64,000 bases of DNA from an uncultured bacterium (GTDB taxonomy: Bacteria; DYJV01): assembly GCA_964492825.1 (NCBI GenBank), contig CAZBLP010000001.1, positions 11,054 through 75,053 of the forward strand, written 5' to 3'. This document shows, piece by piece, positions 8,539 to 46,474 of this stretch (positions within the stretch are counted from its first letter, which is position 1; each line of letters starts with the position of its first letter). A program made the translations under genes and the position numbers. The notes below the pieces were generated by a model, which worked only from the letters and a program-made list of their open reading frames with translations, was not told the origin of the DNA and ran no database searches.

Positions 8539-8540
8539 AA

Positions 8541-9719
8541 ATGAAAAGATACGTTATTATAGGCTGCGGCAATGCAGGTGTTAAAGCTGCTGTTAAAATT
8601 AAGGAAATTGAAAAACATGCCCTGATTACCGTAATTACAGACGAAGATTATCCTCCATACTGCAGATGTTTGTTAACGTATTTTATTGAAAACAAGATTA
8701 ATGACGAGTTTTTATTTCAAGAAGGCAGGCAGATAATTAAAAATAACAATATTGAATTTATACAAAATGTTAAAGTCCAAGAGGTAGATGCTAATAAATC
8801 GGAGATTTTTCTTAGCAATAACCGAAAATTAGGTTTTGATAAATTGTTAATTTCCACAGGAGGAGAGCCATCTTTGCCAAAGTTCAAATACAACGAAGGT
8901 TTGCCGGTGTTTACTTTAAGAAAGTTTGAAGATGCGTTGAAAATCAAGGATGCTTTTAAAAAAGGTGACACTGCTGTAATTGAAGGAGGCGGGCTTGTAA
9001 GCCTTAAAACTCTTCTTGCATTAAATGAAATCGGAGTTAAAATCAAATGGATAGTTAAATCTGAGTATATTTTATCATTTTTGGTTGACAGGTTTTCAGC
9101 TGAATTTATTAAATCATTGATTGTTGAAAATAAAGGTATTGAAATTTACAATAACGAATCTATTGAGGATGTTACAAAAACAAATAGTGCTCTTATTGTT
9201 AAAACAGATAAAGGCAGAGAAATTAAAGCTTCAGGTGTTGTTGTAGGAAAGGGCGTTAAACCAAAAAAATTAAATTTTAACAGAGCTGTTAAATTTGAGG
9301 ATGGGTATATTACAAATGAATACCTTGAAACAACTGTTCCCAATATATATGCTGCTGGAGATTGCAATATTGTGTTTGATGTTGCACATGAAAAGAATTG
9401 GAAAGTCCCTCTTTGGCCATTAGCAGGAGAGCAGGGGATTTGCGCTGCAATTAACATGGTAAAAGGAAATAGTATGAAATACATTTCTGCTGTACCTGTA
9501 AACTCATTTTCAATATTTGAAAACAAGATTATTGCAGGTGGAAAGAAAAAACTCAATCCTGATGAAGTGGACTTATTTTCTGAAAAAGTGTATATAAATA
9601 AAGGGAAAAAAATTTTTAAAAAATTTATTTACAAATATGACCAATTAAAAGGATATGTTTTGGTAAATGATATTTCAAGTGCCGGGAAATATTATTGGAA
9701 AGTAAAGAATAGCAATTAA
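8541..9719 (+). CDS. FAD-dependent pyridine nucleotide-disulfide oxidoreductase (NAD(P)H oxidoreductase partner of CooS/CooF)
   Basis: N-terminal dinucleotide-binding GxGxxG (IIGCGNAGVKAA) and a second Rossmann motif near residue 150, with the late AAGDC motif. Starts 3 nt after the cooS stop. Confidence 0.7.
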   Translation: MKRYVIIGCGNAGVKAAVKIKEIEKHALITVITDEDYPPYCRCLLTYFIENKINDEFLFQEGRQIIKNNNIEFIQNVKVQEVDANKSEIFLSNNRKLGFDKLLISTGGEPSLPKFKYNEGLPVFTLRKFEDALKIKDAFKKGDTAVIEGGGLVSLKTLLALNEIGVKIKWIVKSEYILSFLVDRFSAEFIKSLIVENKGIEIYNNESIEDVTKTNSALIVKTDKGREIKASGVVVGKGVKPKKLNFNRAVKFEDGYITNEYLETTVPNIYAAGDCNIVFDVAHEKNWKVPLWPLAGEQGICAAINMVKGNSMKYISAVPVNSFSIFENKIIAGGKKKLNPDEVDLFSEKVYINKGKKIFKKFIYKYDQLKGYVLVNDISSAGKYYWKVKNSN

Positions 9720-9732
9720 ACGGAGGCATAAA

Positions 9733-10224
9733 ATGAAAGAAATCACAATAGATATATCAAAATGCACAGGTTGCAAATCTTGTGAAATTGCATGCAGAGT
9801 AGAACATTCTTTAAGCAAAAATCTTTTTACAGCTATTTCAGAAGATAAACTTCCTCAAAAAAGGGTCTTTGTAGAAACAAACGGAATTAATAAAATTCCT
9901 ATTCAGTGCAGGAATTGCGAGGACAGTCCATGCATTACAGCATGTATGACAGGAGCAATGCACAAAGACAGCAGAGGGATTGCAATTTGCGATGAATACA
10001 AATGTATAGGCTGTTTTATGTGTATAATGGTATGTCCTTTTGGAGTAATAAATATCAGCAGGTATGAAAAAAAGGTTCTGAAATGTGACAGATGCCCTGA
10101 CAGGGATATACCTGCATGTGTGAATGCCTGTCCAACAGGAGCAATAAAATATGAAGAGGTTGATGAATTTGTATATAACAAAAGAAAAGGATTTGTTAAC
10201 AGTATTGAGCTAAGTAGCTTTTGA
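9733..10224 (+). CDS. cooF: CooF-like polyferredoxin (multiple 4Fe-4S clusters)
   Basis: 163 aa with four CxxCxxCxxxCP-like motifs: CTGCKSCEIAC, CRNCEDSPCITAC, CIGCFMCIMVCP, CDRCPDRDIPACVNACP. Confidence 0.75.
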   Translation: MKEITIDISKCTGCKSCEIACRVEHSLSKNLFTAISEDKLPQKRVFVETNGINKIPIQCRNCEDSPCITACMTGAMHKDSRGIAICDEYKCIGCFMCIMVCPFGVINISRYEKKVLKCDRCPDRDIPACVNACPTGAIKYEEVDEFVYNKRKGFVNSIELSSF

Positions 10225-10245
10225 TTAAGTTGTAAACTTTTATGT

Positions 10246-10479
10246 TTGAAATCTTGTATTGAAAGAATCGAGGTGATTATTTTGAAAATAAATGAAATAA
10301 GAAAAATTGCAAAAAAAATGGATATTAATTCCTTTGGCTTAAGTAAAATTGTTCTTGTAAGGAAAGTTCAGGAAAAAGAAGGTAATTTACAATGTTTTGC
10401 AACAGAAAGGATTTTAGATTGTCCTGAGGAAAAATGTTTATGGCGAGAAGATTGTCTTGTTTTATATGAAAGACAATAA
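10246..10479 (+). CDS. Hypothetical small protein with C-terminal Cys4 cluster (TTG start in ORF track)
   Basis: 77-aa ORF ending QCFATERILDCPEEKCLWREDC (C-x9-C-x4-C-x5-C). No convincing RBS and a non-ATG start, so coding status is uncertain. Confidence 0.3.
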   Translation: MKSCIERIEVIILKINEIRKIAKKMDINSFGLSKIVLVRKVQEKEGNLQCFATERILDCPEEKCLWREDCLVLYERQ

Positions 10480-10599
10480 GAAATTTTAAACAATTCAACA
10501 ATGGAAGCTCCTGTTAGAAACAGAAAATATTTCTGCTAATCTGAAAAATTACAATAATTTTGTCTTGATTTTCTCATAGTATCAGAGTAAATTATTAGT

Positions 10600-12465
10600 A
10601 TGTTTCAAATAGATGAATATAAAAGAAAATTAATAGATTTTAAAAGTTTTTTAGAGCTGTTTAAGAATGGAGATTCCATATTTATTCATAGCGGTGCTGC
10701 TGAACCTTATGTTTTGCTTCAAATGTTGTCAGAATCAAACCTTGTTGATTTGGACTTTTACCAGCTATATTCCATAAGAAATTCTAATTTCTCAAAGGAA
10801 AAGTTATTTGAAAATCATAATTACAGAAATTTTTTTGTAAGTGAGGAGTCAAAATCAGCCACTCATAAAGGAATAGTGGATTATGTTCCTATTAATCTTT
10901 CCCAGATTCCGCTTCTTTTTGACCAACACAGAATAGCTTTGGATTTTGCTTTGATTCAGGTATCAAAACCTGATAACAACGGTTTTTTCAGTCTTGGAAC
11001 AAATGTGGATATTTCAAAATCAGCAGTGAAAAATGCCATGAAAGTTGTTGCACAGGTTAATTTCAATATGCCAAGGACATTGGGAGATTCTTTTATACAT
11101 CTTAAAGATATAGATTATATTATTGAGCATGACAGTGATTTACTTGAATTTAATCAGGAAGAGGAAGATTTTGAAAGAGCTTTAAAAGCAGCTGAAAATG
11201 CAGCAACTATTGTGGATAACTTCAGTACCATTCAGATAGGTTTTGGCAATACTACAAAATTAGTAATTAAAATGCTTTTGGAGCATAGAGGATTAGGTGT
11301 GCATTCTGAAATATTTTATGATGATTTTGTTGATTTAATCAGAAACGGCAATATTACATGTAACAGGAAAACCTTGAATACTGATAAAGTAATTGTTAGT
11401 TTTGTTCATGGAAGCAAAAAAAGTTATGAGTTTATAGATAACAATCCTTTTGTAGAATTTCACCCTGTGGATTATACTAATAATCCTCAAATAATATCAC
11501 AAAATAAAAATTTTATTTCCATTAATTCTGCATTTGAAGTTGACCTTTCAGGTCAGGTAAATGCAGAAGCTATAGGATATAAAATAGAGAGCGGTATAGG
11601 CGGATTTGTGGAATTTAATTTTGGAGCTACTTTTTCAAGAGGCGGCAAATCAATTATTGTATTGCCCTCTATTTCCAAAGACGGTAAAAAATCCCGTATA
11701 GTTCCCGAAATAAAGGAGGGGTTTGGCGTTACGCTCTCAAAGGCAAATGTTCATTATATTGTTACAGAATTCGGTTTGGCATATTTGTTTGGGAAAACCT
11801 TAAGAGAAAGAGCACTGGCTCTTATTAGCATAGCTCATCCTGATTTTAGAGAAGAATTATTTGATTTCGCCAAAAAGAAAGGTATAATTCCCTCAAATCA
11901 AATAATGCCTCTTATGGGTACAAACTATCCGAAGCAGTATGAAACTTATTTTACAACCAAATCAGGAATAAAACTATTTGTCAGGCCTTTAAAATCTGAA
12001 GATGAAGATAACTTGAGAAGATTACTCTATTCATATTCGCTTGATAAGATTTATCAAAGATTTTTTTGCTTTATTAGAGATTTTACTCATGAAAGAACCC
12101 AATGTATGGTTAATATCAATTATGACTATGATATGGCTCTCGGATGTTTTTTTGAAGATGAGCTTGTTGCCACTGCAGGTTATTTTTATGACAGTTCCGA
12201 GCATATAGGAGAGATTGCTTTTATGGTAAAAAAAGAGTATCAGGGTTATGGTATTGCAACTTTTTTAAATGATTATCTTAAGAAAATAGCAGAAGAAAGA
12301 GGTTTGCGAGGTTTTAAAGCTTATGTTTTAAGGCAGAATAGTGCTATGCTTAATGTGTTTCACAAATCTGGTTATCAGCTGAAAGTTAAAGATATTTCAG
12401 ATATGAATATTTTTGAGCTTGAATTATACTTTGAATATAAAAAACAAATAAACAATAAGTTTTAA
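10600..12465 (+). CDS. Acetyl-CoA hydrolase/transferase family domain fused to a C-terminal GNAT N-acetyltransferase domain
   Basis: The N-terminal 430 aa or so resemble acetyl-CoA hydrolase / 4-hydroxybutyrate CoA-transferase family proteins. The C-terminal 150 aa or so carry the GNAT motif A region (EIAFMVKKEYQGYGIATFL). Confidence 0.7.
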   Translation: MFQIDEYKRKLIDFKSFLELFKNGDSIFIHSGAAEPYVLLQMLSESNLVDLDFYQLYSIRNSNFSKEKLFENHNYRNFFVSEESKSATHKGIVDYVPINLSQIPLLFDQHRIALDFALIQVSKPDNNGFFSLGTNVDISKSAVKNAMKVVAQVNFNMPRTLGDSFIHLKDIDYIIEHDSDLLEFNQEEEDFERALKAAENAATIVDNFSTIQIGFGNTTKLVIKMLLEHRGLGVHSEIFYDDFVDLIRNGNITCNRKTLNTDKVIVSFVHGSKKSYEFIDNNPFVEFHPVDYTNNPQIISQNKNFISINSAFEVDLSGQVNAEAIGYKIESGIGGFVEFNFGATFSRGGKSIIVLPSISKDGKKSRIVPEIKEGFGVTLSKANVHYIVTEFGLAYLFGKTLRERALALISIAHPDFREELFDFAKKKGIIPSNQIMPLMGTNYPKQYETYFTTKSGIKLFVRPLKSEDEDNLRRLLYSYSLDKIYQRFFCFIRDFTHERTQCMVNINYDYDMALGCFFEDELVATAGYFYDSSEHIGEIAFMVKKEYQGYGIATFLNDYLKKIAEERGLRGFKAYVLRQNSAMLNVFHKSGYQLKVKDISDMNIFELELYFEYKKQINNKF

Positions 12466-21371: not shown

Positions 21372-23207
21372 ATGCCCAAAAAGAAGGTAATTAACATTAA
21401 CAAGTTTTTAAAACAGGATAGCAGTAAATTTCAGTTAATTGACACAAAAGAGCCTAACCTGTTCAGAGAGTATTTCCCTTATACTGAAATTCCAAGGATA
21501 AAATTTGATAATACCATTGTTTTACCTTCAATGCCTGATGAAATTTTTATTACTGACACAACTTTCAGAGATGGTCAGCAGGCGAGACCTCCCTATAGTG
21601 CAGAGCAAATTGCTCATATTTTTGAACTGTTACACAGATTAGGCGGGCCTAACGGAGTTATTAGAAAATCAGAGTTTTTTCTATATTCAGACAAAGATAA
21701 AAAAGCTGTTGAATTATGCAAAGAAAAAGGATTTGAATTTCCAATAATTACAGGTTGGATAAGGGCTCATAAAGAAGATTTTAAGCTTGTTAAAGAAATG
21801 GAGTTGAAAGAAACAGGGATTTTAACTTCTGTTTCAGATTATCACATTTTTTTAAAAATGCATAAAACAAGAAAAGAAATTTTAAAGGATTATTTGGAAA
21901 TTATTGAAGCAGCAATAGAAAACAACATTGTTCCGAGATGCCATTTTGAAGATATTACAAGGGCTGATATTTTTGGTTTTGTAATACCATTTACCCAGAA
22001 ATTAATGAAAATACAGGAGCAGACTAAAATCCCAATTCTTATTAGATTGTGTGATACTATGGGGTATGGTGTGCCTTTTCCCAATGCAGCACTGCCAAGA
22101 GGTGTTCCAAAGCTTGTAAGGACTTTTGTAGATGAAGTGGGAGTTCCGCCAGAGAATCTCGAATGGCACGGTCATAATGATTTTCACAAAGTTTTAATAA
22201 ATGCCACTACTGCATGGCTTTACGGTTGTGCCGCTGCTAATGGTACGATTTTCGGTTTTGGCGAAAGAACGGGCAATCCGCCTATAGAAGCTCTGATAAT
22301 TGACTATATAAGTATTGCCGGTAATAACAATGCAATAGACACTACTGTTATTACTGAAATAAAAAATTATTTTGAACAGGAAATAGGTTTTCATATTCCG
22401 CCTAATTATCCATTTGTTGGTTCTGAATTTAATATTACAAGAGCAGGTATACATGCAGACGGTTTAATTAAAAATGAGGAAATTTACAATGTTTTTGATA
22501 CTACCAAAATTTTAAACAGACCTCCTTCAGTGGCAATTAATGATAAATCAGGTGCAGCTGGAATTGCACATTGGATTAATTCCCATTTTGGTTTAACAGG
22601 AAATAAGGTTATTAGCAAACACCACCCAGGGGTACAAAAAATATTCAGAAAAGTTAATAAAATGTATGATCAAGGCAGGACTACCGCTCTTTCTTCTGAA
22701 GAAATGGAGAAACTTGTTAGAAAATACCTACCTGATTATTTTATCTCAGAATTTGACGTTATTAAGGAAAAAGCCAAATCAATTGCACAGAATATTATAG
22801 AAGCAATTGTTGAAAAAGAAGCATTTAAAAAGCTTGATGTGCCTAAAATTGAGGAAGAACTTAAAAATCTTCTTTTTGAAAACTCATTTATTCAGTTTGC
22901 TTATGTGGTTGATCTTGAAGGCAATCAAATTACCAGAAATATTACACAACTTTATGAAATGGATAAATATTCGATTAACTGGATTAGAGGCAATCTTGCA
23001 GACAGAGACTGGTTTATTAATCCTATAAAAACAGGGAAAATCTATGTATCAAACCTTTTTAATTCAAAAATCACCAATGATTTATGTTTAACTGTAAGTC
23101 ATCCTATATGGAATGATAAAGATGAGATGATAGCCATAATCGGACTTGATATTAAGTTTGAAACCTTATTGAAAATTGAAGAAAGCATAGATATTGAAAG
23201 GAGTTAA
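21372..23207 (+). CDS. HMGL-like 2-alkylmalate synthase (LeuA/CimA/homocitrate-synthase family) catalytic domain fused to a C-terminal Cache-like ligand-binding domain
   Basis: DRE-TIM metallolyase motifs DTTFRDGQQ and EWHGHNDFHKVLINATTA...GFGERTGN. The last 150 aa or so contain DRDWFINPIKTGKIYVSNLFNSKITNDLCLTVSHPIWNDKDEMIAIIGLDIKFETL, which matches the Cache/PDC-sensor consensus (DRPWY...TGKPYVS...TG.PVIT...P......G...GV.G.D..L). There is no TM segment and no LeuA_dimer-like C-terminus. Confidence 0.7.
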   Translation: MPKKKVININKFLKQDSSKFQLIDTKEPNLFREYFPYTEIPRIKFDNTIVLPSMPDEIFITDTTFRDGQQARPPYSAEQIAHIFELLHRLGGPNGVIRKSEFFLYSDKDKKAVELCKEKGFEFPIITGWIRAHKEDFKLVKEMELKETGILTSVSDYHIFLKMHKTRKEILKDYLEIIEAAIENNIVPRCHFEDITRADIFGFVIPFTQKLMKIQEQTKIPILIRLCDTMGYGVPFPNAALPRGVPKLVRTFVDEVGVPPENLEWHGHNDFHKVLINATTAWLYGCAAANGTIFGFGERTGNPPIEALIIDYISIAGNNNAIDTTVITEIKNYFEQEIGFHIPPNYPFVGSEFNITRAGIHADGLIKNEEIYNVFDTTKILNRPPSVAINDKSGAAGIAHWINSHFGLTGNKVISKHHPGVQKIFRKVNKMYDQGRTTALSSEEMEKLVRKYLPDYFISEFDVIKEKAKSIAQNIIEAIVEKEAFKKLDVPKIEEELKNLLFENSFIQFAYVVDLEGNQITRNITQLYEMDKYSINWIRGNLADRDWFINPIKTGKIYVSNLFNSKITNDLCLTVSHPIWNDKDEMIAIIGLDIKFETLLKIEESIDIERS

Positions 23208-23209
23208 TA

Positions 23210-24469
23210 ATGGGTATGACTCTTGTTGAGAAAATTATCAGTATGAATGCAGGTAAAAATGTTAAAGCAGGTGAGATAGTTATTACTCCTGTTTCAGCAT
23301 GTCTCACTCAAGATGGTACAGGCCCTTTGGCTGTTGATCAGATTAATAAACTTGGAGTGGAAAAAATAAAAAATCCAGATAGAACATATATGTTTATAGA
23401 TCATGCTTCGCCAAGTCCGAGAAAAGAACTTTCAAATGACCATATAAAGCTGAGAAATTTTGCAAAAAAAATGGGTGCTCATCTGTTTGATATTGGTGAT
23501 GGCGTATGTCACCAGGTTGTTGCAGAACAATTTTTAAATCCCGGAGATATTTTAATAGGCGCAGATTCTCATACCTGTACTGGCGGAGGTTTAGGAGCTT
23601 TCAGCACAGGTATGGGCTCAACAGATGTTGCAATAGGCATAGCTTACGGCAAAACTTGGCTCAGAGTTCCTGAAACAATTAAAATTGAAATAACAGGTAA
23701 ATTCAATAAAGGAGTTTTTGCAAAAGATCTTATTTTACATATAATCGGTGAAATCGGAGCTGACGGAGCCACATATAAAGCTCTTGAATTTACAGGAGAA
23801 GCTGTTGGAGATTTTCAAATGGCTGATAGGTTGACTCTTGCAAATATGGCTGTGGAAGCAGGAGCTAAATGCGGACTTTTCCCGTCAGATGAAATTACAA
23901 AAAAATACCTTGAAGATAAAGGCAGAGGTGAAAAATTTATAGAAATATTTCCTGATAATAATGCCACTTATGAAAGAATTTTAAAAATAGATTTAGCATT
24001 AATTGAACCAATGGTATCTTTTCCTCATACTGTTGACAATGTTAGAAAAGTTACTGATGAGGATTGTAAAAATGTGCCTGTGCACCAGGTTTTTATTGGT
24101 ACATGTACAAATGGAAGAATTGAAGATTTAAGAGTGGCAGCAGATATTTTAAAAGGTAAAAAGAGAGCCAATGGCACAAGATTAATAGTAACTCCAGCTT
24201 CAAGAGAAGTTTACGGACAGGCAATCAAAGAAGGGCTTCTTGCTATTTTTAATGATGCTGGTGCGTCTATTAATAATCCAGGTTGCGGTGCATGTGTCGG
24301 AGTGCATCAAGGTATTTTAGGTGACAATGAAAACTGCCTGTCAACTCAGAACAGGAATTTTCAAGGAAGAATGGGCAATGTTAATGCTAATATTTATCTT
24401 TGCTCTCCTGCTACAGCAGCGGCATCTGCAATAGAAGGCAAAATTACTGATCCGAGGAAATATTTTTAA
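23210..24469 (+). CDS. 3-isopropylmalate/homoaconitate dehydratase large subunit, archaeal-type (LeuC/HacA-like)
   Basis: 419 aa with the aconitase-family motifs GADSHT and FIGTCTNGRIEDL...PGCGACVG. Starts 3 nt after the synthase stop. No LeuD-like small subunit follows. Confidence 0.8.
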   Translation: MGMTLVEKIISMNAGKNVKAGEIVITPVSACLTQDGTGPLAVDQINKLGVEKIKNPDRTYMFIDHASPSPRKELSNDHIKLRNFAKKMGAHLFDIGDGVCHQVVAEQFLNPGDILIGADSHTCTGGGLGAFSTGMGSTDVAIGIAYGKTWLRVPETIKIEITGKFNKGVFAKDLILHIIGEIGADGATYKALEFTGEAVGDFQMADRLTLANMAVEAGAKCGLFPSDEITKKYLEDKGRGEKFIEIFPDNNATYERILKIDLALIEPMVSFPHTVDNVRKVTDEDCKNVPVHQVFIGTCTNGRIEDLRVAADILKGKKRANGTRLIVTPASREVYGQAIKEGLLAIFNDAGASINNPGCGACVGVHQGILGDNENCLSTQNRNFQGRMGNVNANIYLCSPATAAASAIEGKITDPRKYF

Positions 24470-29432: not shown

Positions 29433-32096
29433 CTATGAATACAGAATAGCTGCCTGAGCTGCTGCCAATCTTGCAATAGGAACTCTGTAAGGTGAACAGC
29501 TTACATAAGTCATGCCGATTTTATGGCAGAAATAAACAGATTCAGGGTCACCACCATGTTCACCGCAAATTCCAACTTTTAAATCAGGTCTTGTTGCTTT
29601 GCCTTTTTTAACCCCCATTTCCACTAATTGTCCCACTCCGTCAATATCAAGAGTTACAAAAGGGTCTTTTGGTAAAATTTTTATGTCAACATAATCCTTC
29701 AAGAATTTTCCTGCATCGTCCCTTGAAAAACCGAAAGTTGTCTGAGTTAAATCATTTGTACCAAAAGAGAAAAACTCTGCAAATCTTGCAATTTCATCAG
29801 CAGTTAATGCAGCTCTCGGTAATTCTATCATAGTGCCTACTTTGTATTCAATTTTAACATTGTAGGTATCAATTACTTCGTCAGCAACTCTGTTGGTCAT
29901 GTTTTTCAAAATTTCAAGTTCTTTATAAAGGCCTACCAGAGGAATCATAATTTCAGGTATAGCATCAATTCCTTCTTTTATACATTCGCAGGCTGCTTCC
30001 ATTATTGCCCTTACCTGCATTTCATAAATTTCAGGAAATGTTATTCCAAGCCTACATCCCCTATGACCTAACATTGGATTAAATTCATGCAATTTCTCAG
30101 ATAATTCTTTAATTTTTTCCACACTAACATTCATATTTTTTGCAACTTCCTGCATCTCTTTTTCTTCTTTTGGTAAAAATTCATGAAGAGGAGGGTCAAG
30201 AAGTCTTATAGTAACCGGCAATCCGTTCATTTCTTTAAAAATACCTTTAAAATCTTCTTTTTGATACGGTTTGACTTTTTCAAGAGCTTTTTCCCGCTCT
30301 TCTTTAGTTTCTGATAGAATCATTTCTCTTACAGCAATAATTCTGTCTCCTTCAAAGAACATATGCTCTGTTCTGCACAAGCCAATACCTTCTGCTCCGA
30401 ATTTTCTTGCTATTTCTGAATCATGAGGAGTATCAGCATTGGTTCTCACGCCTAACACTCTAACTTCATCAACCCATTTCATAAACTCACCAAATTCTCC
30501 TGTAAATTCCGGATTGATTCTTGGAACTTCTCCTTCAATTACTTCACCTGTGGAACCGTCCAGAGTTATAACATCTCCTTTTTTGAAAATTTTGCTGTTA
30601 ATTTTCATTTCCTGTTTCTCATTGTCAACACTTATTGCACTGCATCCTGAAACACAGCATTTTCCCATGCCTCTTGCAACAACAGCAGCATGTGATGTCA
30701 TACCACCTCTTGCAGTTAGAATTCCTTCTGCAGCATTCATTCCATGAATATCTTCAGGAGAAGTTTCTATTCTTACAAGAATGACTTTTTCACCTTTGCC
30801 TGCTAATTTTTCAGCCTCATCTGCACTAAATACTATTTTACCTGCAGCAGCACCTGGTGAAGCTGGTAATCCCCTGGCTATAACTTTTTTATCAGCTTTT
30901 GGATCAAGCATAGGATGGAGCAGTTGATCAAGCTGTGAAGGCTCAACACGCATTATAGCTTCTTTTTTATCAATTAATCCTTCTTTAACCATATCAACTG
31001 CTATTTTAACAGCTGCTTTTGCAGTTCGTTTGCCGTTTCTGGTTTGTAACATCCATAATTTGCCTTTTTCAATTGTAAATTCTATATCTTGCATATCACG
31101 GTAATGGTTTTCAAGTTTTAAATAAATTTCAACCAATTCTTTGTAAGATTCCGGCATTAACTGTTCCAATGTTGGCAGGTTTTTATTTTCATTATTTTTA
31201 GATGTTTCGTTAATAGGATTTGGAGTTCTGATTCCTGCAACAACATCTTCTCCCTGAGCATTAACAAGGAATTCTCCGAAAAATTTCTTTTCTCCTGTAG
31301 CCGGATCCCTGGTAAATGCAACACCTGTTGCAGAATCTTCACCTAAATTACCAAATACCATTGATTGAACATTTACAGCAGTACCCCATTCATCAGGTAT
31401 TCCATTTAATTTTCTATATGTAATAGCTCTTTGGTTGTTCCATGAGCCAAATACCGCACCTATTGATTCCCATAGCTGCTCTTCAGGGTTTTGCGGGAAA
31501 TCTTCTCCTGTTAGTTCTTTGTAAGTAATTTTTAAATTTACAACCAATTCCTTTAAATCATCAGCTGTTAATTCAGTGTCAAGTTTTACACCCCTTTTCT
31601 TTTTAATTTCTTCAAGAGGTTTTTCAAGTTTCTCAGAATCAATGCCTTTTACAACATTGCCGTACATTTGAATAAATCTTCTGTAACTATCAAAACTGAA
31701 CCTTTCGTTTCCTGCCTGTTTGGCAAGGCCTTGAACTGATTTGTCATTAAGACCGAGATTAAGAACAGTATCCATCATACCTGGCATTGAAACTCTTGCA
31801 CCTGACCTTACAGAAAACAGAAGAGGATTCTCAATACTTCCGAATTTTTTTCCTGTAATTTCTTCAACATTTTTTATAGCTTCTTTAACCTGTGATTCCA
31901 ATTCATCAGGATATTTATTGTTATTTTTATAATAATAAGTACAAACTTCAGTGGATATTGTAAAACCTGGAGGGACAGGAATACCAATATTAGCCATTTC
32001 AGCAAGGTTAGCACCTTTGCCGCCTAATAACTCTTTCATTTTGCCACTGCCATCTGCAGTTTTATTGCCGAAAAAATAAACATACTTTTCCATCAT
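29433..32096 (-). CDS. ppdK: Pyruvate, phosphate dikinase
   Basis: 887 aa with PEP-utilising enzyme regions, including the phospho-His region [15 protein letters not shown] and the C-terminal PEP-binding TIM barrel. Confidence 0.9.
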
Positions 32097-41579: not shown

Positions 41580-42374
41580 GTGTATTTAATAGATTCGCAT
41601 TGTCATTTAAATATGGATTTTTACAAAAATAATTACCTGGAAGTTGCTAAAAGAGCTTTTGAAAGCAATGTGAAAAAAATGGTTGCAATTGGCACCAATT
41701 ATTCTGACAGTAAAAGAGGCGTTGAGATTGCCAATGAAATTTCGTATGTTTATACATCAATTGGGTGGCACCCTCATGACACAAAAGATATAGGAGATTT
41801 AAGCAATCTTATGAAAATTATGCAGTTGTCTGAAAGTGAAAAAGTAGTTGCTTATGGAGAAATCGGTCTTGATTATTTTAAAAAATATTCTCCTGTTGAT
41901 ATTCAAAAAAAATTTTTCAGATACCAGATAAATATTGCCAAAGAATTGAATTTGCCTATTATTGTTCATGACAGAGATGCAAATGACGATGTTGTGAAAA
42001 TTCTAAAAGAAGAAAAAGCGGAAAAAGTAGGGGGAGTTATTCATTGTTTCTCAGGTGACATCAATTATGCGAAGAAAGTTTTAGACATGAACTTTTACAT
42101 ATCTTTTCCAGGCACAATAACTTTTAAAAAAAATATTGAAAATGCAAAAAAGATAATTAACACTATTCCGTTTAACAAAATTTTAATAGAAACTGATTCT
42201 CCTTTTCTGACACCAGAGCCTTTTAGAGGTAAAAGAAACGAGCCTGCTTTTGTAAAGTACGTTGCTGAAAAAGTGGCTGAATTTAAAAATATTTCATTTG
42301 AAAAGGTTGCAAAAATTACAACAGAAAATTGTCTGAGGTTATTTAAAAAAATGAATCAAGCCAATGAGAAATAA
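41580..42374 (+). CDS. tatD: TatD-family metal-dependent DNase/hydrolase
   Basis: Motifs IDSHCHL, GEIGLDY and IVHDRDA are typical of TatD/YcfH. Confidence 0.8.
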   Translation: MYLIDSHCHLNMDFYKNNYLEVAKRAFESNVKKMVAIGTNYSDSKRGVEIANEISYVYTSIGWHPHDTKDIGDLSNLMKIMQLSESEKVVAYGEIGLDYFKKYSPVDIQKKFFRYQINIAKELNLPIIVHDRDANDDVVKILKEEKAEKVGGVIHCFSGDINYAKKVLDMNFYISFPGTITFKKNIENAKKIINTIPFNKILIETDSPFLTPEPFRGKRNEPAFVKYVAEKVAEFKNISFEKVAKITTENCLRLFKKMNQANEK

Positions 42375-42440
42375 TATTTTTATAGTTTTTAAGTAGTCTG
42401 ATTTCCCGTTGAAACTTCACTGATTAAAATCACAAAATTC

Positions 42441-42569
42441 TTGTATACTGTATACATACTGTTGAGTACAATTCTGATTGTATACAAATTTTTTTCTTTT
42501 TTTAAAAATTTTTCTTGATAAAACACTTAATAAATGGTATGCTGTTTTATTAATGCATTTTGTATACAA
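42441..42569. promoter_or_regulatory. Array of palindromic TTGTATACAA-type operator sites bracketing the putative promoter of the PFOR-like gene
   Basis: Sites: TTGTATACTGTATACA (42441-42456), TTGAGTACAA (42462-42471), perfect TTGTATACAA (42478-42487) and perfect TTGTATACAA (42560-42569). The last is just downstream of the -10 TATGCT of a TTGATA-17 bp-TATGCT promoter (42515-42543). Confidence 0.5.
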
Positions 42570-42724
42570 TAAACAAGATGAATAATTCAAGGTTTGAAAT
42601 CTAAATCATTTCCTATTTTATCTTGTTTTGGCAGGTTATTAAATGTGGTTAATTAAAAAACATTATAAATGCAACGTTGAATAAAATATTTTAACGTTGG
42701 ACTCATATTAGCAAGGAGATTGGC

Positions 42725-45700
42725 ATGAAAAAAGAAATGGATTTTAATTATGATTTTAATTTCAGGTTTAATGGCAAATATCTGTTTAATGCAGATTATT
42801 TTATTGAAAATTTAAAAAAAGAAATTGGAGAAGAAAACTTTCAGAAAATGCAAAAAACAGAAGAGTTTATTAATGATGGTAATTCAGCTGTTGTTAATGT
42901 GTTAAAGAGGTTGGTTACAGGACTTGTTGGTTATCCTATTACTCCCTCTACTCCAATTGCAGAAGGAATGGCTAAAGCATATTCTGATGGTACAATTAAT
43001 GTTTTTGGAGAAAAAATGTTTTATTTTCAGCCTGAAAGTGAGCTTGGGGCAATGTCATTTTTAGAAGGTGCTGCAAGTCAAGGCGGTAGATTTGCAGATA
43101 ATACGTCTTCCCAAGGGTTAACATATAAAATAAAAAACATGTACTCAGTTGCAGGTAAAAGATTGCCTGTGTTAATGACTGTTCAGACAAGAGAGGTAAA
43201 CAAAGGAAGTTTAAGTATTCACAACAGTCATACGGATCTTTATGCAGCACGAGGCACAGGATGGGTACTTTTAATGACCTCTAATAATCAGGAAATGCAC
43301 AATCTGATACCCCTTGCTTTTAAAACTATTGAGCAGAGGCAGATAATGTTGCCTGCAATAGTTGCTGGTGAAGGTTTTTTAAAAAGCCATAGCATTGAGA
43401 ATATTAAAATTTTGTCTGACGAATTTTTAAAATACTTTGTTGGAGCACCAAACAGATTATTTCAGCCTGATTTTGACAATCCTGTATTAATGGGAACTTT
43501 CACAGATATAAATGTTACAATGCCTACACAGATTAAACAGGATATTGCAATTAGAAATGTAAAAAAATACTTTAAAGCTACAATGGCTGTTATGAATAAA
43601 ATATTAGGCACTAATCTTGATGTGGTTGAAAATTACAGAACAGAAGATGCTGAATTTGTGGTTGTTATGATGGGAGCAGGTGCTGAAACTATGAAAGATG
43701 TGGTGGATTATTACAGAGACAAAGGTATTGCTGTTGGTCTGGTAAGACCGGTGCTGTTTTATCCAGTTTGTACAGAAGAGATAGCATATGGCATTCAGAG
43801 CAGCAAAGTAATAACAGTTATAGAAAAAGTGGCAGAGGCTAATGAAAAATACCTTTACAGGGATGTAAACGAAGCATGTAAACTTATAAATATTAATCCT
43901 GAAATTTTATCAGGTATATATGGTCTTGGTAATCAGAATTTAAGTATAGAAGATTGTTGCGGGCTTATTGAGAATATGATTTCGGAGAAAAAATCAGATA
44001 AGTTTTTTGTGGGGATTTCAGGGCATAATTGCATTGAATCTGTTAAAAAGGAAGATTTTGTTTCAAAAGAAGTGGGAATGACTTTTATTGGCATTGGTGC
44101 AGAAGGAGTTAAAACTTCTCAGGAAACTCTTGCTAAGATTATTGCAAAGTCAGGTAAATATGTTCAAACAAGTGCAAAATACGGTGCTTCAAGAAAAGGT
44201 GGTATGGTTGTAATGAATGCAAGAGTTTCAGATGAACCAATAAGGAACTGTTCAAATTTAACTGAAATTGGAATACTTTCAATTTTTAATGATAAATATT
44301 TTATAGATAATTCTTTGTTACCTTTTATCAAATCTCTAAAACCTGGCGGATATTTAATTATAAACAGCGTGAAAACTTTTAAAGAAATTTTTCAAGGCAC
44401 TACAAAAGAAATTCAAAATATTTTTAATGAATTTAAATTTAACATTGTACTTATTGATGCAACAACACATGTTTTGAAAGTTTTAAAGAGGAATCTTCCA
44501 GGAACACCTATTTTAGGAGTTATTAATAAGCTTACTAAAATTTTGCCAGAGGAAGAGTTTTTATCAATATTCAAAGAAGAATTAACAGCGAAATTCGGTG
44601 ACAAAAAACCTCACCTTGTTGACAAGAATCTTACTTTGCTTAAAGTTCCTTTTGATGTTATTGGCACTAAATTTAAACTTGAAAATGGCAGGAAAAATGA
44701 AAATGCTTCCTTGGATAGCAATAAGGAAAATCCGAAAAAAGAGAAACTGATTTTCAACATACCTGAAGAAACATATCTTGAGGATGATGAACTTGCTACC
44801 CTTGATTTTCCCAATTTATACAAAGAAAAATATTTTGATAAATTTGTCAATGATGTTTTAAAACCTTTTCAGCAAGGTGAGTCTGTTCCTTGGGAAAAGT
44901 TTCTAAATATTGTCCCTGCAAAAACATCAAAATTTAATAATGCAAGTTTAATTGGTACTCATTTACCGGTGTTTAATGCTGATAAATGTATTAATTGCGG
45001 ATTGTGTATTGCAAGTTGTCCTGACAATGCTTTGAGAGTTACTTTGATTAATGAAGATGAATTTAACAATTTATCAGATTCAAATAAAAAATTATTTAAA
45101 GAAGTTAATGAGAAAAGATTTTTAGGAACAAGCGGAAAGTTGGATAGGAAGTATTATTTTAACATTAATGTAGTAGAAAATTATTGCAAAGGTTGTGGTG
45201 TATGTGTGAAATCATGTAAATTCAATGCATTGCAAATGGAAGATAAGAACAGATTAAACAGAGATGAATCGTTTATTTCAACGGAAGTTTCCAATTTGGA
45301 CAGATCTGACGAAGTTTTTGATAAAGTCTCAGGTAATAAAATTTTACAAAAAATTATGCTTAAATATTCAGGACAAAAGTTTTTACCTGGTGGCCATTCA
45401 TTATGCCCAGGTTGCGGAGAAGGTATTATAGAGAATCTGGTTTTTACAGCAGCGGAAATGGTTAGAACAGATACTTCCATAATAGAAGAAACGTATAAAT
45501 CCATTCCGCAGCTGCTAAAAAGATCCCATGAAAAAGGCGTAAGACATATGTTGAAAAAGGGATTTTATATTTATACAATAAATGCTACAGGATGTGCTGA
45601 AGTTTCATGTTTGTCAAATCCGTATAATTCAAGAATTTATAATTCAGGTCATTACGGTTTTGGTACTGCAAGTGCAGCAGCTCTTGGAACAAGAATTTCA

Positions 45701-46474
45701 TTGTTCAGTGCATTTAGAAATTATTATCTTGATAAATTAACCAAAGTTATAGTTTTCGGAGGAGACGGAGCATTTTACGATATTGGTAATCAAGGACTAA
45801 ACTTTGCTCTTGGAGAAAATCAGGATATTACATGGATAGTCTACAATAACGAAGCTTATATGAATACAGGTTTTCAAAAATCAGGAGCAAGCAGGTTTGG
45901 CTCCAACAGGTCAACCTCGCCTTATGGTCTTGAATTAAAAGGAAAAGATGATTTTCATAGAGAATTGGTTGCCCAGGCAATGGCAATACCAAAAGTTTAT
46001 GCAGCAAGATTATCTCTTGCAAATCCTTTACATTGTTTGAAAATATTAAAAGAAGCTATAGCGTATAAAGGTCCTTCATTAATAGAAATTTTTTCACCGT
46101 GTCCTACAGGCCAGGGTTTGGCTACAGATGATATTGGCATTGAAGTTTCAAAAATGATGGTAGAATCAAGAGCTTGGCCAATAGTGGTGAGAAAACCGTA
46201 CAATGGTATTGATATTACTGCTAATCCTGATTATGATAAAATTTATCCTGAACCAAGAAAAATTAAGGATAAATTAATTGAGCCTGCAAAATTTAAAGAC
46301 ATAGTCAATCTTATGGGGCAATTTATAGGAGACCAGGAAACAATTAAAAAAATAGTCAAAGTTAATGAAAGGCAAAATATATACAGATGGAACTGGTTAC
46401 AATACCTTGCTGGAGTTGCAGATAAAGTTCTAACTGAAGAAGAAATAGAAGAAATAATATCTGACAGATTGTAG
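42725..46474 (+). CDS. Pyruvate:ferredoxin (flavodoxin) oxidoreductase-family single-chain 2-oxoacid oxidoreductase (NifJ/PFOR paralog)
   Basis: 1249 aa with the PFOR domain order: YPITPS domain I, gamma domain (KYVQTSAKYGASRKGG), two 4Fe-4S motifs (CINCGLCIASCP, CKGCGVCVKSCK), TPP domain (GGDGAFYDIGNQGL). Strong RBS AAGGAG 6 nt before the ATG. About 45-aa N-terminal extension relative to canonical PFOR. Confidence 0.8.
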   Translation: MKKEMDFNYDFNFRFNGKYLFNADYFIENLKKEIGEENFQKMQKTEEFINDGNSAVVNVLKRLVTGLVGYPITPSTPIAEGMAKAYSDGTINVFGEKMFYFQPESELGAMSFLEGAASQGGRFADNTSSQGLTYKIKNMYSVAGKRLPVLMTVQTREVNKGSLSIHNSHTDLYAARGTGWVLLMTSNNQEMHNLIPLAFKTIEQRQIMLPAIVAGEGFLKSHSIENIKILSDEFLKYFVGAPNRLFQPDFDNPVLMGTFTDINVTMPTQIKQDIAIRNVKKYFKATMAVMNKILGTNLDVVENYRTEDAEFVVVMMGAGAETMKDVVDYYRDKGIAVGLVRPVLFYPVCTEEIAYGIQSSKVITVIEKVAEANEKYLYRDVNEACKLININPEILSGIYGLGNQNLSIEDCCGLIENMISEKKSDKFFVGISGHNCIESVKKEDFVSKEVGMTFIGIGAEGVKTSQETLAKIIAKSGKYVQTSAKYGASRKGGMVVMNARVSDEPIRNCSNLTEIGILSIFNDKYFIDNSLLPFIKSLKPGGYLIINSVKTFKEIFQGTTKEIQNIFNEFKFNIVLIDATTHVLKVLKRNLPGTPILGVINKLTKILPEEEFLSIFKEELTAKFGDKKPHLVDKNLTLLKVPFDVIGTKFKLENGRKNENASLDSNKENPKKEKLIFNIPEETYLEDDELATLDFPNLYKEKYFDKFVNDVLKPFQQGESVPWEKFLNIVPAKTSKFNNASLIGTHLPVFNADKCINCGLCIASCPDNALRVTLINEDEFNNLSDSNKKLFKEVNEKRFLGTSGKLDRKYYFNINVVENYCKGCGVCVKSCKFNALQMEDKNRLNRDESFISTEVSNLDRSDEVFDKVSGNKILQKIMLKYSGQKFLPGGHSLCPGCGEGIIENLVFTAAEMVRTDTSIIEETYKSIPQLLKRSHEKGVRHMLKKGFYIYTINATGCAEVSCLSNPYNSRIYNSGHYGFGTASAAALGTRISLFSAFRNYYLDKLTKVIVFGGDGAFYDIGNQGLNFALGENQDITWIVYNNEAYMNTGFQKSGASRFGSNRSTSPYGLELKGKDDFHRELVAQAMAIPKVYAARLSLANPLHCLKILKEAIAYKGPSLIEIFSPCPTGQGLATDDIGIEVSKMMVESRAWPIVVRKPYNGIDITANPDYDKIYPEPRKIKDKLIEPAKFKDIVNLMGQFIGDQETIKKIVKVNERQNIYRWNWLQYLAGVADKVLTEEEIEEIISDRL

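Follow-up and report, generated by a model that had tools for sequence, protein, structure and literature searches.

Why does the gene of one predicted oxidoreductase carry up to four short palindromes around its promoter, and what kind of protein may bind them? The window, that is, the whole stretch of 64,000 nt analysed here, contains this gene behind an intergenic region in which the sequence-only reading had seen a looping arrangement of operators for a dimeric repressor. It had placed there a promoter TTGATA-17-TATGCT, two perfect copies of the palindrome TTGTATACAA (the motif is also written WTTGTATACAAW) and, upstream, a tandem TTGTATACTGTATACA and a variant TTGAGTACAA. All these elements are present, the tandem lying at 42441-42456 within the most distal of the following features:

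42441..42457, no strand: O4, composite distal site of two overlapping imperfect palindromes, TTGTATACTG and CTGTATACAT, 7 bp apart
42462..42471, no strand: O3, degenerate palindrome TTGAGTACAA, 16 bp upstream of O2
42478..42487, no strand: O2, perfect TTGTATACAA, invariant in the promoter alignment A2
42515..42543, + strand: sigma-70-type promoter, found by promoter scan and conserved in six aligned orthologous promoters
42560..42569, no strand: O1, perfect TTGTATACAA, 16 nt after the -10 and invariant in A2
42576..42705 (boundaries approximate), + strand: lineage-specific leader segment of ~130 nt, absent from orthologs
42713..42718, + strand: ribosome-binding site AAGGAG, 6 nt before the ATG at 42725
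42725..46474, + strand: predicted divergent single-chain PFOR-like 2-oxoacid:acceptor oxidoreductase (ORF of 1249 aa; Pfam)

Are these palindromes anything more than a product of base composition? It could be argued that an AT-rich intergenic region yields such a cluster by chance: the G+C content of the window is 31%, and the TTGTATACAA motif with two mismatches stays at background level there (87 matches, 80 expected). Exact copies of TTGTATACAA speak otherwise. The only two in 64 kb are O2 and O1, both in the intergenic region before the PFOR-like gene, compared with an expectation of 0.11, and none of 100 shuffles reached two; the random frequency of which the sequence-only reading had warned is not what the window contains. 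The 8-mer TGTATACA has three copies in the window, every one inside 42449-42568, and none was found in ~17 kb past both window ends or elsewhere in ~250 kb of orthologous loci. GTATAC occurs eight times in the window, four of them within 125 bp (42443-42567); its overall rate is close to chance, so that an artefact of genome-wide avoidance is absent. Moreover, the palindromes are perfectly conserved in orthologs whose genomes range from 26% to 49% G+C and whose contexts are unrelated. An origin by chance or composition has thus been refuted by the comparative data, and we give it practically no probability.

The orthologs compared come from uncultured AT-rich bacteria, share 72-91% protein identity and differ in their gene neighbourhoods. 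In most of them, a -35 of the form TTGMWA is followed by a 17-nt spacer ending in TGn and by the -10, a perfect O1 starts 15-16 nt past the -10, and a perfect O2 lies 82-84 bp upstream of O1, usually with a third site 16-17 bp upstream of O2 and a composite fourth. The distance between O2 and O1 is 82 bp in the window and in the orthologous loci L084 and L214, 83 bp in L085, L009, L131/L212 and L215, and 84 bp in L001; L214 and L215 also show the same operator layout. The gap between O2 and the -35 (27-30 nt) and that between the -10 and O1 (15-16 nt) each vary, and their sum is constant. When six orthologous promoters are aligned (A2), O1 and O2 are invariant and TTG..A, the 17-nt spacer, TGn and the -10 are kept, at a mean column identity of 67%; over eight orthologous loci with differing neighbourhoods, O1 and O2 remain perfect while the sequence between them drifts. 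Apart from the window, seven loci have a site at the O3 position, 16-17 bp from O2; it is perfect in L001, L085 and L215, ATGTATACAA in L214, ATGGATACAA in L084 and TTGAATGCAA in L131/L212. A strain variant of the window's own locus (L089) carries the SNP T42463C within O3, hence constraint on O3 is weak in this lineage. An O4-like overlapping TGTATAC-N-GTATAC is also present in L084 and L131/L212, at 30-37 bp upstream of O2, and in L009, at 22-29 bp. In one rearranged locus, L213, O1 is the sole operator retained, and a higher-GC clade of 62-64% identity has a single site at about -50, which precedes a conserved -35 by 9-10 nt. The adjoining genes are TatD in the window, a glycosyltransferase in L081, pantothenate kinase in L085, an unannotated gene and then OMP decarboxylase in L084, and a CLC channel in L214/L215; since these neighbours differ between loci, the operator element travels with the PFOR-like gene. 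From such comparison of sequences, the palindromes are a real, evolutionarily conserved set of putative regulator sites.

The promoter that they surround consists of the -35 TTGATA (42515-42520), a 17-nt spacer ending in TGG, which makes an extended -10, and the -10 TATGCT (42538-42543), as the sequence-only reading had it; transcription would start near 42550. Relative to this predicted start, O1 covers about +10 to +19, O2 about -74 to -65 with its centre ~69 bp upstream, and the centre of O3 is near -85. The earlier placement of the proximal palindrome over +1 must therefore be shifted, because the site, itself correctly recognized, starts 16 nt after the -10, and the ~35 bp given between the distal perfect copy and the -35 was wrong: 27 nt separate the end of that copy from the first base of the -35.

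The transcript would have a long leader, predicted at ~175 nt rather than the earlier estimate of about 150 nt. Is this leader itself regulatory, either as a riboswitch-like or attenuator RNA, or through AACGTTG as a second pair of operators? The predicted centroid structure has two local hairpins, at 42571-42628 and 42672-42699, the second being formed from two copies of AACGTTG (42673-42679 and 42693-42699), which are indeed 13 nt apart as had been noticed, or 20 bp from start to start; CAACGTTG is an 8-bp palindrome, as an operator might be. AACGTT is self-complementary, so the two copies are the arms of a 10-bp hairpin, and AACGTTG is found in the window at chance frequency (3 matches, 3.17 expected). 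The entire ~130-nt segment is missing from L131/L212, L084, L085, L001 and L009, in all of which 28-36 nt separate O1 from the ATG, although the proteins of L131/L212 are 91% identical over the first 187 aa and 84% over the full length, and that of L084 88%. Thus neither the long leader nor its repeats are conserved. Neither the window nor the other loci hold another copy of the segment, and leaders of other lineages have insertions of different sequence. The fold has a z-score of only -1.4, and 17 of 200 shuffles did no worse; no Rfam family matched at or near threshold, the only match being a plant microRNA model far below it; and no U-tract follows either hairpin. A regulatory leader is therefore very unlikely, and to judge from these comparisons the segment is a recent, unconserved insertion without sign of function.

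What is the enzyme encoded downstream? Its sequence is that of a divergent PFOR-like enzyme, in agreement with the sequence-only reading. Pfam domains follow one another along the chain as POR_N, PFOR_II, POR (gamma), Fer4 (2x[4Fe-4S]) and TPP_enzyme_C; the score against the NCBIfam model TIGR02176 for the single-chain nifJ type, 382.7 bits, is far below the equivalog cut-off of 911.35; and relatives are named in public sources only as '2-oxoacid:acceptor oxidoreductase family protein'. When it is aligned against characterised enzymes, the best solved relatives are the PFORs of Desulfovibrio africanus and Moorella thermoacetica. In 40 sequences, the TPP motif (G1013-D1014-G1015, N1041-N1042), the two CxxCxxCxxxC motifs (C755/758/761/765 and C821/824/827/831) and the cysteines of the proximal cluster (C894/897/957/1126) are invariant. 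It had been said that every PFOR domain is present; this holds for the other domains and is slightly overstated, because the Pfam EKR domain (PFOR domain IV) is not detected in the 1249-aa protein and its motif is not conserved, the region aligning to D. africanus residues 633-690 with NNAS in place of EKRG. The long start codon is supported: an equivalent AGGAG or GGAG precedes the same conserved N-terminus in orthologs, and the N-terminal extension is conserved down to 47%-identical orthologs (F21 invariant; F15 and L20 at least 90%) and, in the predicted structure, consists of four short helices (pLDDT 87-92). Its length is ~42 residues instead of ~45, since the alignment pairs residue 49 with residue 7 of D. 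africanus PFOR. T73, R156 and N1047 are invariant and equivalent to D. africanus Thr31, Arg114 and Asn996, the pyruvate-binding residues of that enzyme; this conservation is only suggestive of pyruvate as a substrate. No second PFOR is encoded in the 64-kb window.

Then, what binds the palindromes? CRP/FNR and Rex operators are 16-20-bp dyads, the former with 4-6 nt between half-sites and the latter with a longer spacer. Here the half-sites abut without a spacer and show no extended symmetry in 15 sites, and Rex and CRP/FNR-type (HcpR, CooA) operators were rejected; of the earlier idea of a dimeric repressor, the multi-operator array is upheld by conservation and these motif classes are not. 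The FadR subfamily of GntR regulators recognizes A/T-rich TKGT/ACMA boxes with GTM-N0-1-KAC, and TTGTATACAA, read as TTGT-A followed by T-ACAA, fits this published consensus exactly (PMC4494728). Beyond the 10-mer, the flanks of 15 aligned perfect sites have weak symmetry (only T at -2 and A at +11), which is expected because the GntR-type dyad is short (10-14 bp). In a metagenome scan, with genes called by Pfam and HMM scan, a GntR+FCD gene either adjoins a TTGTATACAA pair or belongs to the operon that follows the pair in 9 of ~80 independent locus families, L129 being an example of the latter, and 17 metagenome loci have the pair with no adjoining GntR gene. No GntR-family gene or other candidate regulator is encoded in the 64-kb window, in ~17 kb adjoining its two ends or in the orthologous flanks, so that, with no regulator gene within ~80 kb, we infer its identity; and since no second regulon member of the motif was found, the family is assigned by motif class only.

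Another family, chiefly a MarR-type regulator such as an OhrR-like redox sensor, has also to be considered, for the ohrA operator of Bacillus subtilis, TACAATTAAATTGTATACAATTAAATTGTA, holds the identical 10-mer (PMC2651793), and the same centre recurs in a 22-bp synthetic version of the operator bound by HsmR, also of the MarR family (PMC12541388). A redox sensor would suit the gene of an oxygen-sensitive iron-sulfur enzyme, and the lack of a GntR gene near the locus would be natural. But MarR-type operators are 16-30-bp dyads of which the 10-mer is merely the centre, and the 15 aligned sites have neither long flanking symmetry nor TACAATT/AATTGTA partner half-sites; the annotated flanks contain no MarR gene either, and the association in metagenomes is with GntR+FCD genes. 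A MarR-type or other such regulator is thus rather unlikely, and a GntR-type looping repressor of the FadR/FCD type is the most likely candidate.

How might such a repressor work here? The promoter of the monocistronic PFOR-like gene would be bracketed by up to four operators, O1 to O4, all bound by one dimeric, probably higher-order, transcription factor. Protein on O1, just downstream of the start site, would block RNA polymerase at initiation or early elongation. O2 lies at a conserved eight helical turns (~8 x 10.4 bp) upstream of O1, so that a tetramer or two interacting dimers could bind the two on one face of the helix and enclose the promoter in a loop of ~83 bp, to which O3 and O4 may add cooperative binding. 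Operators on both sides of the promoter, one of them at the initiation region, at a spacing of integral helical turns are what looping calls for, and the arrangement proposed by the sequence-only reading is borne out by eight loci that keep perfect O1 and O2 82-84 bp apart around a conserved -35 and -10. FadR/FCD-type regulators usually sense a carboxylic acid, and PdhR senses pyruvate. The most economical model is a PdhR counterpart, which would keep the PFOR-like gene repressed until the 2-oxoacid substrate or a related acid accumulates. It might be possible instead that O2-O4 are activator sites and that O1 alone represses, low occupancy activating and high occupancy shutting off the gene with no loop. 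O2 and O3 near -69 and -85, and the single site near -50 in the higher-GC clade, are at positions from which activators contact RNA polymerase, so the regulator could be dual; and L213 retains O1 only, so looping would not be obligatory. Yet the fixed 82-84 bp between O2 and O1 despite varying component gaps is what a requirement for the same facing predicts, and Atu1419, the nearest characterised protein with this core, is a repressor. We regard activation from the upstream sites as improbable, and the whole model of GntR/FadR-type operators with looping repression as moderately probable. If so, the switch, though solid, is of a fairly common bacterial type.

How do these parts compare with known systems? 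With the PFORs of D. africanus (1B0P) and M. thermoacetica (6CIN), the enzyme shares the domain order, the TPP motif and the three [4Fe-4S] cysteine motifs, at ~22% identity in a Foldseek structure-based alignment; unlike them, it has an extra conserved helical segment of ~42 residues at the N-terminus and no EKR signature, positions 645-700 form a low-complexity linker ~60 residues long, and ~50 residues are inserted between its two ferredoxin-type clusters. As for the operators, that of the B. subtilis gnt operon is centred on the TTGTATACAA core inside ATACTTGTATACAAGTAT, a single longer dyad adjoining the regulator gene, with gluconate as effector, whereas several short dyads are found here. 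PdhR of the Escherichia coli pdhR-aceEF-lpd operon, listed as a FadR-subfamily regulator with TKGT/ACMA-box sites (PMC4494728), represses a pyruvate-decarboxylating enzyme, which is the logic proposed here; GT and AC are 3 nt apart in its box instead of 2, it is encoded in the operon that it controls, and its target is the pyruvate dehydrogenase complex and not a PFOR-like, ferredoxin-dependent type. Atu1419 of Agrobacterium fabrum (GntR family, FCD/VanR group) differs in that its operators are 109-190 bp apart, unlike the fixed 82-84 bp here, their outer base pair is A/T in place of T/A, its own gene is adjacent and autoregulated as opposed to no regulator gene within ~80 kb, and its target is hydroxycinnamate catabolism rather than an oxidoreductase of central metabolism. 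Nevertheless, Atu1419 is a tetramer crystallised on a 10-bp palindrome, ATGTATACAT, whose 8-bp core is identical to that of TTGTATACAA; several copies of that palindrome lie in each promoter region, one overlapping core promoter elements, and Atu1419 represses by forming DNA loops between two of them (PMC7797058).

The PFOR-like gene, an open reading frame of 1249 codons, lies downstream of a 350-bp gap after a TatD-family gene, and this gap holds the features that the sequence-only reading had listed.

Features around the gap
41580-42374, TatD-family gene, upstream neighbour of the PFOR-like gene
42441-42457, operator palindrome O4
42462-42471, operator palindrome O3
42478-42487, operator palindrome O2
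42515-42543, predicted promoter TTGATA-17-TATGCT with a TG extension
42560-42569, operator palindrome O1
42725-46474, plus strand, PFOR-like gene

The exact 10-bp palindrome TTGTATACAA has just two copies in the 64-kb window, starting at 42478 and 42560, where 0.11 copies are expected, and two or more copies arose in none of 100 shuffles. All three copies of the 8-mer TGTATACA in the window fall within 42449-42568. When two mismatches are allowed, the motif falls to background frequency in the window; the signal is carried only by near-perfect copies. Can the rarity of the motif elsewhere come from avoidance of a restriction site? GTATAC occurs eight times in the window against 6.3 expected, with half of the copies in one 125-bp stretch of the intergenic region, and since its overall frequency is as expected, restriction-site avoidance was rejected. 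Exact counts, shuffles and the promoter scan thus confirm the palindromes and the promoter that had been claimed from the sequence alone.

Orthologs of the PFOR-like protein were gathered and their upstream regions compared. Eight AT-rich loci, counting the window, share one layout.

AT-rich loci sharing the operator layout, with protein identity to the window
L131/L212: 91% over the first 187 residues, 84% over full length
L084: 88%
L085: 77%
L001: 73%
L214: 73%
L215: 73%
L009: 72%

In all eight, a -35 element (TTGATA or TTGCAA) and a -10 hexamer are separated by 17 nt, the last three of which are TGn, O1 is a perfect TTGTATACAA starting 15-16 nt past the -10, and O2 is a second perfect copy upstream. 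O3 usually lies 16-17 bp upstream of O2; three loci have a perfect copy of it, and in the window, L084 and L131 it is degenerate. Still further upstream, several loci have O4, a composite site in which two copies overlap. In an alignment of six promoters, the columns without variation are in essence those of the two palindromes, of TTG..A in the -35 and of TG/AT in the -10. The start-to-start distance between O2 and O1 is 82, 82, 83, 84, 83, 83, 82 and 83 bp in the eight loci, while the gap from O2 to the -35 varies between 27 and 30 nt and that from the -10 to O1 between 15 and 16 nt, so that it is the sum that is conserved. Gene neighbours of the PFOR-like gene vary between loci, and therefore the operator element belongs to the PFOR-like gene. 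No copy of TGTATACA was found elsewhere in about 250 kb of ortholog loci, nor in about 17 kb beyond both window ends. A rearranged ortholog of 84% identity (L213:1-235) retains O1 only, the upstream operators having disappeared at a point where coding sequence now adjoins the promoter. In a more distant clade (62-64% identity, 46-58% G+C), only one site, TTGTATACAN, is kept, 9-10 nt before a conserved TTGCCA-17-TATAGG block, and L086 and L051 have the variants TTGTATCCAA and TTGTATGCAA of the site. A sigma-54 promoter reading of this higher-GC block was rejected because the GG-to-GC spacing is inconsistent between loci, and TTGCCA-17-TATAGG is preferred. As judged from these alignments, the operator set is a clear phylogenetic footprint of transcription-factor operators.

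Two observations on single records may be added. The sole difference between the window and its strain variant L089 in the 350-bp intergenic region, T42463C, lies inside the degenerate O3, TTGAGTACAA (L089:9739). Record DYJV01000021.1 (L009 / L081) is titled 'Candidatus Methylomirabilis sp.', the G+C content of the locus is 29% and its protein groups with the AT-rich uncultured relatives of the window; the label looks doubtful.

How might such a set of sites work? O1, at about +10 to +19 from the putative start, would be in a repressing position. O2 lies eight helical turns from O1, and this distance, conserved within 1 bp either way, is the signature of two sites that, as with loop-forming repressors, have to be bound from one side of the helix. 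It is also possible that the upstream sites act as activator sites for a dual regulator: their positions, about -69 and -85 here and about -50 in the higher-GC clade, suit an activator too. The reading we prefer is that an oligomer of GntR/FCD type bridges O1 and O2 and thereby represses, that O3 and O4 would add cooperativity, and that a carboxylic-acid effector would relieve repression; in this scheme we infer where transcription starts, which way the upstream sites act, that a loop forms, to which family the regulator belongs and what its effector is. Of the multi-operator, looping control of a sigma-70-type promoter proposed from the sequence alone, the layout is upheld by conservation, and looping is probable.

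What kind of protein would bind these sites? An iterated HMM built from five GntR+FCD proteins and run on all six-frame ORFs from the window and each locus had no match in the window or in any PFOR locus, matching in metagenome-scan loci only. Extension of the window at both ends (about 17 kb) gave neither a regulator gene nor a further site. The ortholog neighbourhoods are unrelated to each other, with no conserved regulator gene and none adjacent in any locus. Since no regulator gene was found at the loci, the assignment rests on the motif class. The FadR-subfamily GntR consensus consists of TKGT/ACMA boxes with a GTM-N0-1-KAC core (PMC4494728), and TTGTATACAA matches it exactly. Atu1419 of Agrobacterium fabrum, a GntR/FCD protein, binds and was crystallised on the 10-bp palindrome ATGTATACAT, whose 8-bp core is identical to that of TTGTATACAA; the protein is a tetramer, and DNA looping between two copies of its site was seen by electron microscopy (PMC7797058). 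Its binding is lost on a G3-to-A / C8-to-T change of the site.

Metagenomes were also scanned for two exact 10-mers 60-90 nt apart, which gave at least 120 loci in about 80 sequence families among the matches listed. Among the matches listed there was one PFOR ortholog (L131), and there were no regulon members for this lineage. A GntR+FCD gene (Pfam) was found beside the pair or in the downstream operon in nine independent families among the matches listed (L094 type, L209 type, L091/L133 type, L129, L150, L194, L090, L116 and L120), where less than one family is expected by chance, by our rough estimate from the rarity of such genes.

Other regulators were also weighed. The identical 10-mer forms the centre of the ohrA operator of Bacillus subtilis (PMC2651793). 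When 15 perfect sites are compared, the symmetry in their flanks goes no further than a weak extension to a 14-bp dyad (T at -2, A at +11), which argues against MarR-type operators. A comparison with Rex and HcpR/CooA (CRP/FNR-type) motifs had been suggested, and these do not fit, because such sites need a spacer and the flank data of the 15 sites speak against them. A literature search for CTTGTATACAAG, the presumed gnt operator of B. subtilis, gave no match, and one for the exact 10-mer gave cloning-vector and eukaryotic sequences only. Taken from motif class, the regulator is most likely of GntR/FCD type.

The scan also brought out pairs of TTGTATACAA in other settings. At L130:9812-9895 and 16 similar metagenome loci (L096, L101, L107, L114, L134 and others), a pair 74-75 bp apart lies between tandem paralogous genes for lipoproteins of about 540 aa, solute-binding-protein-like by their N-termini, on contigs of about 31% G+C, several of which come from human gut samples. 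These pairs have a ROK-family gene 2 kb away and showed no GntR gene nearby. At L094:10303-10404 (from human gut), L209:9636-9737 and L150:1982-2084, two sites 92-93 bp apart lie between a GntR+FCD gene and a divergent gene whose N-terminus resembles, by eye, pyrroline-5-carboxylate reductase, and this looks like another conserved two-operator arrangement.

In all close orthologs, the RBS and ATG follow within 28-36 nt after O1, the leader reading ...TTGTATACAAtaaacattacgaattaggagattgcaATG in L131 and ...TTGTATACAAtaaacaagaaaggggcgtcaATG in L001. The window and its strain variants L088 (identical) and L089 (near-identical) have about 130 extra nt after ...TTGTATACAAtaaaca. No second copy of this insert was found in the window or the comparison loci, and a mobile-element origin was rejected since the insert is not repeated. 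There was no Rfam match for it, its fold is not better than that of shuffles (z = -1.4), and it has no terminator-like feature. Since AACGTT is its own reverse complement, the two AACGTTG copies simply form the arms of a 10-bp hairpin. Given their absence from close orthologs, their chance frequency in the window and the fold score, a function for these repeats is not supported. We regard the long leader as a recent insert with no demonstrated function. Unrelated insertions occur in other lineages, and the stretch between promoter block and RBS of this gene family looks like a hot spot for leader expansion, with insertions of 90-300 nt.

Leader insertions
L003:3620-3780, about 90 nt
L005:2610-2760, about 90 nt
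L051:5800-5990, about 100 nt
L008:1870-2180, about 300 nt
window 42576-42705

The encoded enzyme has the Pfam domain order POR_N, PFOR_II, POR (gamma), two ferredoxin-type clusters and a TPP-binding domain, and among solved structures it is closest to those of two single-chain PFORs, from D. africanus and M. thermoacetica. Even so, it is divergent, Foldseek giving about 22% identity to solved PFORs. It had been described as having every PFOR domain; the domain order stands, while no EKR domain was found by Pfam, EKRG being replaced by NNAS in the aligned stretch. Its TIGR02176 score is 382.7 bits against a cut-off of 911. Several hundred homologs, mostly of 1240-1300 residues and mostly from Desulfobacterota-type metagenome bins, make up a distinct family, which databases name only '2-oxoacid:acceptor oxidoreductase family protein'. 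Across 40 sequences no variation was seen in any cofactor motif, nor in T73, R156 and N1047, the equivalents of Thr31, Arg114 and Asn996, which we take to be the pyruvate-contacting residues of the D. africanus structure. The substrate may thus plausibly be pyruvate or a different small 2-oxoacid.

Residues 1 to about 45 make up the N-terminal extension; residue 7 of the D. africanus enzyme is matched by residue 49 here. Throughout the family the extension is conserved (F21 invariant; F15 and L20 at least 90%), and the structure model folds it into four short helices with pLDDT 87-92. The whole model is mediocre (mean pLDDT 64.6) and poor for the TPP domain (below 50 over 938-1162), and it was used only for the extension and the fold class. 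Conservation and the modelled helices support the long start codon, so that the extension proposed from the sequence alone is borne out in orthologs.

Elsewhere in the window, a Prismane-family gene, apparently for a CO dehydrogenase of CooS type or a hybrid-cluster protein, lies together with a pyridine-nucleotide-disulfide oxidoreductase and a 4Fe-4S ferredoxin-like gene, followed by an acetyl-CoA hydrolase/transferase (6640-12465); with pyruvate phosphate dikinase (29433-32096), these genes suggest anaerobic pyruvate/acetyl-CoA metabolism in the organism. At 21372-23207 (plus strand), a 611-aa protein joins an HMGL-like (isopropylmalate/homocitrate-synthase-type) catalytic domain to a C-terminal part matching PDC/Cache sensor-domain models (PF22673 at 7e-11; dCache_1 at 3e-8, below cut-off), not the usual LeuA regulatory domain, and an aconitase-family gene follows at 23210-24469.

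We put forward, as a possible but rather doubtful reading, that the sites define a regulon not described before, in which a GntR/FCD-type sensor, encoded in trans and responding to pyruvate or a different 2-oxoacid, would control through an eight-turn loop a distinct clade of single-chain 2-oxoacid:ferredoxin oxidoreductases, with an N-terminal helical module and without the EKR motif, widespread in uncultured Desulfobacterota-like bacteria; the substrate may not be pyruvate. The 10-bp operator, the putative fixed 83-bp loop and the conserved promoter give a cis-regulatory handle on an enzyme clade common in uncultured anaerobes, and the regulator and its effector, if found, would offer an indirect route to the physiological substrate of the enzyme. 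The switch itself is of a well-known type, and the enzyme clade is poorly characterised. The closest analogue in function is PdhR, which belongs to the FadR subfamily and represses the pyruvate dehydrogenase operon, and finding the regulator and effector would add a ferredoxin-dependent counterpart to the PdhR paradigm.
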